In this document: one piece after another, positions 2,967-7,153 of the stretch
Layout of the letters: the number at the start of each line of letters is the position of its first letter
Numbering within the stretch: the stretch's first letter is position 1
Sequence record: PZ445134.1
DNA: 64,000 bases
Reading direction: 5' to 3' (one strand)
Source of the DNA: a phage
Made by a program: the position numbers and the translations under genes
The notes under the pieces: generated by a model
What the model saw: only the letters and a program-made list of their open reading frames with translations
Told to the model about the DNA's origin: nothing
Database searches by the model: none

Positions 2967-3023
2967 CTTATTTCCTTGTTGTTTGACGATAGATTAATAA
3001 TACTATACTATTCGTAAAGCATA

Positions 3024-3332
3024 TTACATAAGAAGCAAACGTTCCACCGGAGTACCATCAACCGAAATTACTTTATCAAGGCGGAAAGAACGCCACTGAC
3101 CTAACTTGGTGTCGAATGCTCGAACTGATTCACGAGGTTCATAACGAACTTCTGTTGCCGGATTGTTATTTTCATATTTGACTTCAAGTTCATCGCGCGA
3201 AGCAAACATAGTGCGTACCTCACCGTTAGCCTTTTCAAATACAACACAATGAACGCCTACAGACAGAATAGTTTTAATACGTTCACGAAGAACCATAGTT
3301 TCTTGTTCAGTTAAAATCATATTATTCACCAC
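3024..3332 (-). CDS. hypothetical protein, 102 aa
   Basis: Track ORF between cd and 31 (T4 cd.x position). Confidence 0.55.
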   Translation of the reverse strand: MVNNMILTEQETMVLRERIKTILSVGVHCVVFEKANGEVRTMFASRDELEVKYENNNPATEVRYEPRESVRAFDTKLGQWRSFRLDKVISVDGTPVERLLLM

Positions 3333-3903
3333 AAAAGTTTCGGATTTGTTCCCAATTCAGAGAACGAAGATTATTACGAGAGTACTGAATTACTTCAATA
3401 CCGGCTTGTTTTAGAATGTCTGCCCAATTTTCAGGAGATCTGTCATATAATTCTGCGTATACAACCTTTTTAATACCTGACTGCGTAATAGCTTTAGTGC
3501 AATCAGGACACGGAGAAAGCGTCGTATATAACGTAGCACCTTCAATAGAATTACCTTTACGAGCTGCAAACAAAATTGCGTTCAATTCCGCATGGATTTC
3601 GTTATTAGCAGACCATGCACTATGAGCGGCCCGATGTTCTTTAGCCAAAACAAAATTATCTGCCCGTCCAAATGCTGTAGTGCCTTCTTTATGACCAGCA
3701 ACGATGACCGGGCTTGGTTTATTCTTCAACCAACCGTTTTCGGATGCATGTTCGCAACAGTTTGTACCACCTGAAGGAGAGCCATTATAACCTGTAGAAA
3801 TAATGCGTCCATCTTTTTCAATGACGGCACCAACTTTCCATGAACAACATTTTGATTCTTGAGAAATCAGATATGCAATCTGAAGGTATGTGCTAGCTTT
3901 CAT
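3322..3903 (-). CDS. cd: dCMP deaminase
   Basis: 193 aa, same length as T4 Cd; cytidine/dCMP deaminase zinc motifs HAELNAI and SPCPDC. Confidence 0.9.
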   Translation of the reverse strand: MKASTYLQIAYLISQESKCCSWKVGAVIEKDGRIISTGYNGSPSGGTNCCEHASENGWLKNKPSPVIVAGHKEGTTAFGRADNFVLAKEHRAAHSAWSANNEIHAELNAILFAARKGNSIEGATLYTTLSPCPDCTKAITQSGIKKVVYAELYDRSPENWADILKQAGIEVIQYSRNNLRSLNWEQIRNFCGE

Positions 3904-4895
3904 TATTGAACCTTATTAATATAAGTTAACAGCTCTTTAGTTTGTTCCCAACTGATGCACGCATCGGTAATGGAAACGCCATAGGACATATTATCAGAAA
4001 TTTTTTGATTTCCTTCATGTAGGAATGATTCTATCATAATTCCTTTGACCAAATCATTAGCTGCTAAATTTTTACCAATACCAATTTGATTGCTATAATA
4101 CCCATCAGCGTTTGCATGGCTACAGTCAACCATTACATAATGATTCAGACCTAATGCACTTGCTTTGTTAGAAGCTTCTTGAATATCAGAAGAATGATAG
4201 TTCGGGCCGTTAGTCCCGCCACGCAATACGATATGCGTATTCTGATTACCTTCAGCTTCAACAATGCCTACAGTACCATCGACGTCCATACCCATATACC
4301 GATGAGGCCAGGCGGCACTATACATCGCGTCTGTAGCTACTTTAATAGAACCATTGGTTGCGTTCTTGAAGCCTACGCACATCGGTAGACCTGAAGCAAT
4401 TTCACGATGTGTCTGACTTTCAGTCGTACGGGCGCCAATAGCAACCCATGAGAAAATACCAGAAAGATACTTAATCGTGAATGGGTCTAATACTTCAGTT
4501 GCTAATGGAAGTCCCATACGTAGAAGTTTACGACACAATGTTCGTGCAACTATAAGACCGTGGTTCATATCAAAACTTCCGTCAAGATATGGATCATTTA
4601 CAAGACCTTTCCAACCTACGGTAGTTCGAGGCTTTTCAAAATAAACGCGCATCACTAACAGAACATTAGGAAGACGAGTTTGAAGTTCAGCCAGACGTTT
4701 GCCATATTCAACAGCAGCAATAGGGTCATGAATTGAACAAGGACCTACAACAATAAGTTTGCGTGGGTCTTCACCGTTCATAATCGAATTAACTTGTTCG
4801 CGATGAGAAGCCACTTGTGATGCGTAAGCTTCCGACAAAGGAATAATCTCAGCCAGTTCTTTTGGAGAAATAAGTTTTCTGATGACAGGTAACAT
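3903..4895 (-). CDS. 3-deoxy-7-phosphoheptulonate (DAHP) synthase, class I AroG-type
   Basis: 330 aa; motifs RVYFEKPRTTVGWKGL and GARTTESQTHRE.ASGL are hallmark AroG/AroF segments; AAGGA SD; start/stop overlap with cd. Confidence 0.85.
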   Translation of the reverse strand: MLPVIRKLISPKELAEIIPLSEAYASQVASHREQVNSIMNGEDPRKLIVVGPCSIHDPIAAVEYGKRLAELQTRLPNVLLVMRVYFEKPRTTVGWKGLVNDPYLDGSFDMNHGLIVARTLCRKLLRMGLPLATEVLDPFTIKYLSGIFSWVAIGARTTESQTHREIASGLPMCVGFKNATNGSIKVATDAMYSAAWPHRYMGMDVDGTVGIVEAEGNQNTHIVLRGGTNGPNYHSSDIQEASNKASALGLNHYVMVDCSHANADGYYSNQIGIGKNLAANDLVKGIMIESFLHEGNQKISDNMSYGVSITDACISWEQTKELLTYINKVQ

Positions 4896-5015
4896 AACAA
4901 TCCTTAGGAGATATAAACAGATTCTGATTCAACAATACCTTTAACCGGATTAGACAGGCTAAGTTGGTAGTGCTCAGATTTATGACCATTCTCGATAGTA
5001 ATGAGATAACTCTCA

Positions 5016-5252
5016 TTATAGTGTTCCATATACTCGAGTTGCTTCAACAAGACCATCACTGCCTAATTTAAGATTAGTAATTTGGTCACCATCTTTAGGA
5101 TTAACGATTATGAGAAAAGAACGAGGAGATTCTTGAATAACTCGTAATGTTGCATCCTGGAAACGTTCAGACACTTTATTGATGAGTGCTTGAGCGAATT
5201 CTTTTACTTTAATCTGAAATTCGTGTACTGTAATTGGATTTTCACTTAGCAT
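5016..5252 (-). CDS. hypothetical protein, 78 aa
   Basis: Track ORF; early promoter 5281-5310 upstream. Confidence 0.5.
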   Translation of the reverse strand: MLSENPITVHEFQIKVKEFAQALINKVSERFQDATLRVIQESPRSFLIIVNPKDGDQITNLKLGSDGLVEATRVYGTL

Positions 5253-5280
5253 TTCGATTTCCTCATTTGTTGGTAGAGTT

Positions 5281-5310
5281 ATAGTATCACAACTCTACTG
5301 TGTTGTAAAC
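5281..5310 (-). promoter_or_regulatory. T4-type early promoter
   Basis: minus strand GTTTAC, 18 nt, TACTAT. Confidence 0.5.

Positions 5311-5990: not shown

Positions 5991-7153
<1,163 letters not shown>

Follow-up and report, generated by a model that had tools for sequence, protein, structure and literature searches.

The DAHP synthase gene and its product

The window analyzed here, i.e., the whole stretch of 64,000 nucleotides from the phage sequence record PZ445134.1, belongs to a Mosigvirus (RB69-like) genome and matches phage PHB12 at 97.9% identity across 6.5 kb. All genes, motifs and signals located in it below are on the minus strand. An ATG-initiated open reading frame (ORF) at 3903..4895 (330 amino acids plus stop) encodes a full-length type I-alpha DAHP (3-deoxy-D-arabinoheptulosonate 7-phosphate) synthase of the phage clade phrog_5045. 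The active site is intact throughout this clade, and the pocket in which cellular enzymes bind their feedback inhibitor is rewritten. The gene is located between cd.2 (5016..5252; DUF7320, Pfam E-value 1.5e-35; phrog_1504), the resident gene upstream, and cd (3322..3903; dCMP deaminase, Pfam dCMP_cyt_deam_1, E-value 1.6e-26), which it overlaps downstream. Regarding this overlap, the TAA stop of the DAHP synthase gene and the cd ATG have one base in common (TAATG, 3901..3905), which confirms the arrangement behind the translational coupling proposed in a first-pass annotation of the same DNA. That annotation had placed the gene between pseT and cd; it does abut cd, but four small genes and a 120-nt spacer separate it from pseT. 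The absence of such a gene from this position in T4 was stated correctly, T4 having cd.1 and no DAHP synthase in the cd.2-cd slot.

Pfam, NCBIfam, PDB sequence and fold searches agree with the first-pass annotation on a phage-encoded DAHP synthase. Pfam PF00793 (DAHP_synth_1) matches residues 36-323 with an E-value of 1.7e-74. Among the NCBIfam models, the product passes TIGR00034 (aroFGH equivalog, EC 2.5.1.54; 426.6 bits, cut-off 173.2) and the AroF-type subfamily model NF009395 (454 bits, cut-off 343), and fails the AroG equivalog NF006723 (362.8 bits, cut-off 568) and the AroH model (385.2 bits, cut-off 463). The top solved relative in the PDB sequence search was Escherichia coli AroF (6agm, E-value 1.6e-104; AroG, 1e-91), and the identity to the E. 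coli isozymes is 51% for AroF, 48% for AroG and 44% for AroH. The product is a type I-alpha DAHP synthase that is closest to AroF. Membership in AroG, the type originally assigned, was rejected on the failed equivalog model and on the Gly at the position of AroG Ser211.

An AlphaFold2 model, which was built from 46 sequences and is a predicted fold and not a solved structure, had a mean predicted local distance difference test score of 93.2 and a predicted template modelling (TM) score of 0.92. Compared with the solved type I-alpha DAHP synthases 4hso, 8e0x and 1kfl, the predicted fold yielded a TM-score of 0.96 and a root mean square deviation of 1.3-1.5 Å. The model comprises a (beta/alpha)8 barrel with an N-terminal extension and an internal beta-hairpin (strands 198-203 and 209-214).

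The twelve catalytic and substrate-binding residues, i.e., four metal ligands and eight residues for PEP (phosphoenolpyruvate) and E4P (erythrose-4-phosphate), are invariant in all 26 phage-clade members, which were aligned with 100 other homologues in columns numbered by AroG, and likewise in 100/100 of the latter. The metal ligands Cys53, His260, Glu289 and Asp311 correspond to AroG Cys61, His268, Glu302 and Asp326. Cys53 is part of the motif GPCSIHD (4725..4745; invariant in both sets), and the other three are found in 4110..4127 (His260), 4026..4037 (Glu289) and 3957..3971 (Asp311). The PEP and E4P residues kept are those of AroG Arg92, Lys97-Pro98-Arg99-Thr100, Arg165, Lys186 and Arg234, the first five of which are Arg83 and Lys88-Pro89-Arg90-Thr91 in the substrate-binding motif RVYFEKPRTTVGWKGL (residues 83-98; 4602..4649). 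A further type I-alpha motif, GARTTESQTHREIASGL, covers residues 154-170 (4386..4436). Both segments, once taken for near-verbatim pieces of E. coli AroG, are indeed present, but they are universal in type I-alpha enzymes and not specific to AroG, and the second is nearer AroF. No catalytic residue is lost on alignment, and the product is almost certainly an active DAHP synthase that condenses PEP and E4P to DAHP.

A 3-deoxy-D-manno-octulosonate 8-phosphate (KDO8P) synthase, or another sugar-phosphate enzyme feeding lipopolysaccharide or DNA-sugar modification, is a highly improbable identity for the product. PF00793 spans both enzyme types, and a phage genome paper links the domain to lipopolysaccharide (PMC8022965). 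Against this, the NCBIfam matches at E ≤ 0.001 were to DAHP synthase models and included none for KdsA, the top PDB sequence and fold matches were all DAHP synthases with the deviations given above, and the metal-binding Cys and the KPRT motif for E4P are present; the homology is to DAHP synthase and not to KDO8P synthase. One point against a role in sugar or DNA modification is RB69, which is without the gene and carries the arabinosyl-hydroxymethylcytosine modification typical of its genus.

The N-terminus was first described as lacking about 20 residues of host AroG; by alignment, only about 8 are missing (AroG residues 2-9), and the remaining ~12 of the 20-residue difference in length are due to deletions in internal loops and to an earlier end of the protein at the C-terminus. 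An extension of the N-terminus by use of a start codon further upstream was excluded, the ORF starting at the first start codon past an in-frame stop, and the start point is identical in all clade members. A Shine-Dalgarno sequence, AAGGA (4901..4905), precedes the ATG by 5 nt, and a ribosome-binding site is annotated at the equivalent place in phage Mizar.

The inhibitor pocket and the proposed role of the enzyme

The site for Phe in DAHP synthase is formed across the tight dimer by the N-terminal extension and the beta-hairpin, both of which also build the dimer interface (PMC4735112). Gln151/Gln152 and Ser180/Ser181 (AroG/AroF) contact the inhibitor by binding its main chain, and a salt bridge of Asp155 stabilizes the site (PMC9529685). 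In the ORF product the canonical contacts, i.e., the N-terminal cap and AroG Pro150, Gln151, Ser180 and Phe209, are not conserved; the cap is deleted, and Ile, Lys, Pro and Tyr are found instead. The wall of the pocket, DPFTIKYLSG (4458..4487), has Ile141 and Lys142 for Pro150 and Gln151 and Gly146 for Asp155. The segment GLPMC (4377..4391) has Pro171 for the inhibitor-contacting Ser (AroG Ser180, AroF Ser181), and HRYMG (4290..4304) has Tyr200 for AroG Phe209, followed by the AroF-like Gly202 at AroG Ser211. Of the residues of AroF that form the site for Tyr, Pro148 alone is kept, whereas the column of Asn8 is deleted, Gln152 is replaced by Lys and Ser181 by Pro.

These replacements are a property of the clade. 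Ile at position 150 and Lys at position 151 were each found in 25 of its 26 members, as opposed to Pro in 90 and Gln in 98 of the 100 other homologues; Pro at position 180 and Tyr at position 209 were found in all 26, as opposed to Ser in 97 and Phe in 98. Position 155 is Gly in 25/26 and Asp in AroF, AroG and AroH. Position 144, which is Phe in AroG, is Val in 26/26 and variable among the others (Phe in 47/100). The columns of AroG Asp6/Asp7 (AroF Asn7/Asn8) are deleted in 26/26 and present in the others; the number of residues ahead of the metal-binding Cys is 48-52 in the clade, 58-95 in 99 of the other homologues and 52 in the last (P0031), itself a phage protein. Of the departures from the canonical residues in this set of 100, two stem from phage proteins as well, namely P0031 and the enzyme of Aeromonas phage HJ05. 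Position 211 is Gly in 26/26; Ser at this position is the residue for Phe-type specificity, as switch mutants of the yeast and Neisseria enzymes are reported to show.

Regarding the genes recovered from IMG/VR, the signature was present in 10/10 T4-like loci, whereas the full signature was found in none of the 70 DAHP synthase genes that are not T4-like, two of which (L034 and L035) share Pro180 and Tyr209 only. Loss of the pocket as a general trait of viral DAHP synthases was rejected, 68 of these 70 genes, mostly from giant-virus bins, keeping the canonical P-Q-D-S-F.

Several of the altered positions coincide with those of feedback-resistant alleles. AroG P150L, S180F, F209A and F209S are feedback-resistant (PMC9529685), and AroF Q152I and Asn8Lys yield Tyr-insensitive enzymes (PMC11843938); in the latter source the position-8 mutant is labelled 'AroG', but Asn8 and the sensitivity to Tyr fit AroF by alignment. 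Compared with these alleles, and with AroG D146N and AroF P148L, the phage clade is altered at the shared positions 150, 151/152, 180/181 and 209 and at the N-terminal position 8, whereas Asp146 and AroF-148 Pro are unchanged. It differs from the engineered alleles in that several positions are changed at once and by natural selection, in that the residues concerned (Ile, Lys, Pro, Tyr and a deletion) are not published alleles, and in that its resistance is a prediction. Lys142 of the phage enzyme would correspond to the Lys of yeast ARO4 Q166K given a numbering offset of 15 residues, but this equivalence was set aside and is not used as evidence. ARO4 Q166K itself is named as a feedback-resistant allele in PMC5879953.

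For the phage enzyme, the canonical mode of binding Phe or Tyr is probably no longer available. Because the cap residues are missing and five pocket positions are substituted, inhibition by Phe, Tyr or Trp is not expected, and the phage DAHP synthase is predicted with moderate confidence to be feedback-insensitive. The suggestion in the first-pass annotation that a shortened N-terminus could bear on feedback inhibition takes a more specific form here, as the deleted cap columns would be among the causes.

DAHP synthase controls the entry of carbon into the shikimate pathway, and a deregulated copy alone raises the flux, on which aromatic strain engineering builds (PMC9529685, PMC5879953). The explanation favored here, which is held to be reasonably probable, is that of a catalytically competent, feedback-insensitive enzyme of the T4-like clade, expressed early, that keeps chorismate synthesis running. 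The gene would be transcribed early from a promoter upstream of cd.2. After the shut-off of host transcription, the host isozymes would no longer be inducible and would stay feedback-inhibited; the feedback-blind phage enzyme would keep chorismate synthesis going, and the remaining host enzymes would carry the carbon onward to chorismate. A benefit to the phage might lie in the supply of aromatic amino acids that go into its proteins, or in that of chorismate-derived cofactors such as folate. Like cd, td, frd and nrdAB of the T-even early region, the gene duplicates a host metabolic step; unlike these genes of nucleotide synthesis, it opens an amino-acid and cofactor pathway, of which only the first of seven steps is phage-encoded.

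A number of observations weigh against this explanation. Asp146, the AroF-type Pro148 and Gly212 are retained in the pocket, and the predicted model still shows the beta-hairpin and the greater part of the N-terminal extension; these elements may support some regulation, or may serve the dimer interface only. The replaced residues are conserved and not decaying, which would fit a retuned site, too. RB69, mar005P1, moha and JK42 are without the gene, and because RB69, a standard laboratory phage, lacks it, it is dispensable under laboratory conditions. In the literature searched, phage DAHP synthases are mentioned twice in passing, and neither experiments on them nor work on their regulatory site were found.

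The retained Asp146, AroF-148 Pro and hairpin would also suit an ordinary additional Tyr-regulated, AroF-like DAHP synthase that provides more capacity and is still feedback-inhibited. E. coli AroF is the best match, NF009395 is passed, and the Gly at AroG position 211 is of the Tyr type; the two proteins agree in metal ligands, substrate residues and fold, with 51% identity over the full length. Such an enzyme is nevertheless unlikely, given that five inhibitor-site positions and the N-terminal cap are changed, and that single changes at several of these abolish inhibition in the E. coli enzymes. Compared with AroF, the phage protein has Ile, Lys, Gly, Pro and Tyr at AroF positions 151, 152, 156, 181 and 210, is about 9 residues shorter at the N-terminus (Asn8 included) and also shorter at the C-terminus, and carries loop deletions of 5 and 3 residues.

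A pocket retuned to another effector, e.g., a nucleotide-pool or phage-specific metabolite, would couple entry into the shikimate pathway to another phage process. Val144, Ile150, Lys151, Gly155, Pro180 and Tyr209 are near-invariant across clade members that are only 56-77% identical to the ORF product, which is unlike a decaying site, and the gene keeps its place beside cd, the T4 product of which is annotated as an allosteric enzyme. Yet none of the results points to a ligand, the conservation of the pocket residues is equally explicable by packing and dimer-interface constraints, and the adjacency to cd may be inherited synteny only; such retuning is quite improbable. In a more specific form, which is very doubtful, the enzymes of T4-like phages would form a branch of the type I-alpha family in which natural evolution has rewired the allostery, with the new pocket and the shortened cap binding the other effector and the entry to chorismate and folate tied to phage DNA-precursor synthesis. 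The fixed position of the gene beside cd is consistent with the latter.

If the phage clade is feedback-resistant by nature, a single enzyme allows T-even-type phages to overrule an amino-acid checkpoint of the host. The clade would then be a ready-made, evolution-tested deregulated DAHP synthase with a combination of changes that was not found by mutagenesis. The engineering of strains that overproduce aromatic compounds begins with the removal of feedback inhibition from DAHP synthase.

Origin, import and distribution of the gene

The DAHP synthase gene is an old phage-resident gene under purifying selection. The 23 best matches in a database of 5.8 billion proteins show 57-98% identity to the ORF product; P0031 (from Providencia phage PSTCR6) is to be added to them, and all of these top matches for which the source is named or the contig was examined are from T4-like phages. 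Below them, a plateau of cellular proteins from unrelated phyla was found at 50-55% identity. In a neighbor-joining tree of 126 sequences, the phage proteins formed one clade in 28/30 bootstraps and were not nested in the enterobacterial AroF proteins. The ratio of nonsynonymous to synonymous substitution rates was 0.145 between two Kanagawavirus copies.

A recent host-derived moron, i.e., E. coli aroG or aroF taken up by the phage, had been implied by the first reading of the conserved motifs, which do look 'near-verbatim' AroG. It is scarcely credible in view of an identity of 44-51% to the three E. coli isozymes, of a guanine-plus-cytosine content of 40.6%, which is like that of the neighboring genes and compares with 52% for E. 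coli aroF and aroG, and of the monophyly of the phage clade, the closest cellular proteins of which come from diverse phyla at no more than 55% identity. Recent capture from E. coli was rejected on identity, base composition and phylogeny.

The Mosigvirus enzyme is nearest the Kanagawavirus one (77% identity). Eleven Mosigvirus records, e.g., the type phage RB69, mar005P1, moha, JK42, JK36 and ECO111 5-P, have an empty site in which cd.2 abuts cd. The difference between presence and absence is an exact block of 1113 bp (3900..5012), the in-silico removal of which restores the cd.2|cd junction of mar005P1 and RB69 base for base. The cassette is bounded by a direct repeat, ATAATGA, with its left copy at 5013..5019 and its right copy at 3900..3906, the latter including the stop codon of the DAHP synthase gene and the start codon of cd. 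The 120-nt spacer, which forms the left end of the block, holds an ORF of 41 amino acids (4904..5029) that matches phrog_15876 over its full length and, with an E-value of 1.8e-5, positions 44-76 (the C-terminal half) of phrog_1504, the family of cd.2. This ORF shares 44-54% identity with the C-termini of cd.2 from Kanagawavirus and Marfavirus, as opposed to 28% with the resident Mosigvirus cd.2, and its alignment scores were matched by 0/500 shuffles. The spacer ORF is read as a relic of the 3'-half of a foreign cd.2 and, as such, as the scar left when the cassette was imported from a different T4-like phage that already had the order cd.2-DAHP synthase-cd; the left breakpoint would lie inside the donor cd.2. 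Phage Mizar annotates a hypothetical protein at the position of this ORF.

Homologues of the DAHP synthase were found by tblastn in 213 phage records, with an identity of at least 95% in 140. Most phage copies carry the annotation phospho-2-dehydro-3-deoxyheptonate aldolase or 3-deoxy-7-phosphoheptulonate synthase. The ORF product is 99.7% identical to the proteins of phages ST0 and PHB12, and phrog_5045, a family labelled as auxiliary metabolic gene, matches residues 1-330 with an E-value of 1.3e-181. Members of this family in ST0, HX01, JS09, ATK47, PEi20, vB_Kpn_F48, EcS1, CHI14, PM2 and KLB31 are the same gene in the same slot upstream of cd. The slot between cd.2 (or its equivalent) and cd is kept in six annotated genera (Mosigvirus, Kanagawavirus, Marfavirus, Kagamiyamavirus, Winklervirus and Bragavirus), at times with one or two small ORFs intervening, and the order pseT-x-DAHP synthase-cd is also found on a deeper-branching metagenomic T4-like contig. 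The roughly 140 Mosigvirus records with the gene and the 11 with the exact empty site constitute a natural near-isogenic set for gauging the contribution of the gene.

In Kagamiyamavirus EcS1 (4483..4818 of the locus L009) and Winklervirus CHI14 (4498..4839 of L010), an ORF of about 112 amino acids, which is the size of T4 cd.1, is located between the DAHP synthase gene and cd; DAHP synthase and cd.1 may thus coexist in these phages. The sequence labelled 'Acinetobacter phage MD-2021a' (CAKLQH020000056.1, 13 kb), in which aroF is found beside cobS, cobT and a ribazole phosphatase gene, was set aside since it looks like bacterial chromosome. Two unverified faecal 'Bacteriophage sp.' contigs, which carry no annotation, were not used either.

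The gene has already been annotated and catalogued, and for a relative an auxiliary metabolic role is already in print: the copy of the Kanagawavirus KLB31 was proposed to aid aromatic amino-acid synthesis in a 2025 paper on Klebsiella phages (PMC11845039). A domain note for phage phiC120 mentions the gene, with lipopolysaccharide named for the domain (PMC8022965). What extends the existing annotation here is the analysis of the regulatory site; the literature searched holds no analysis of the regulatory site, the origin or the insertion scar of phrog_5045.

Neighboring genes, expression signals and other viral DAHP synthase genes

The flanking genes were named from Pfam and from annotated relatives. 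On the minus strand, the order is rnlA, alc, pseT.3, pseT.2, pseT.1, two small ORFs and pseT (6067..6966), after which follow cd.4, a homologue of RB69ORF227c, cd.3, cd.2, the 120-nt spacer, the DAHP synthase gene, cd, 31.1, 31 and rIII.

A sequence resembling an early promoter, GTTTACA-17-TACTAT, is located upstream of cd.2 at 5270..5309, with its spacer and -10 element inside a perfect inverted repeat of 8 bp (GTAGAGTT/AACTCTAC). In T4, the early promoter Pe133295 occupies the same gap between cd.3 and cd.2. The region contains 13 promoter-like matches as compared with 12.9 expected from shuffled sequence, i.e., no excess, and the assignment of this site rests mainly on its position because the frequency of matches equals the shuffled expectation. 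No terminator-like site was found on the minus strand between the promoter-like site and cd. The site is likely the start of a cd.2-DAHP synthase-cd transcript, and the enzyme is likely expressed early together with the genes of nucleotide metabolism. The element also resembles promoter-stem-loop (PeSL) motifs. Such motifs have reportedly been proposed to drive the shuffling of modules in T4-like phages.

Other viral genomes carry more distant DAHP synthase genes. In Aeromonas phage HJ05 (OQ594355, 79 kb), the gene at 3899..5062 encodes a protein of 387 amino acids with a long N-terminus and 37% identity to the ORF product; its pocket is also non-canonical (Ala150, His151, Pro180, Val209, Ala211). 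It adjoins a gene for an anti-defence-type protein of the Acb2/Tad1-hairpin kind, with a methyltransferase gene nearby. The 262-kb jumbo viral contig IMGVR_UViG_3300028829_003504 (the L034 mentioned above) encodes at 2971..4020 a DAHP synthase of 349 amino acids that is nearest the T4-like clade (48-50% identity). In addition to the shared Pro180 and Tyr209, it has Asn151, His155 and an N-terminus of normal length. Its position as sister of the T4-like clade is weak (10/30 bootstraps), and its gene lies between those for a topoisomerase IB-like protein and for a thymidylate kinase. Type I-alpha DAHP synthases with canonical regulatory residues were found in dozens of giant-virus bins among the IMG/VR contigs of giant virus metagenome-assembled genomes (L038-L101), which may include cellular DNA. 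About a dozen of the ORFs from these bins are 630-680 amino acids long, which suggests a C-terminal fusion to another domain.

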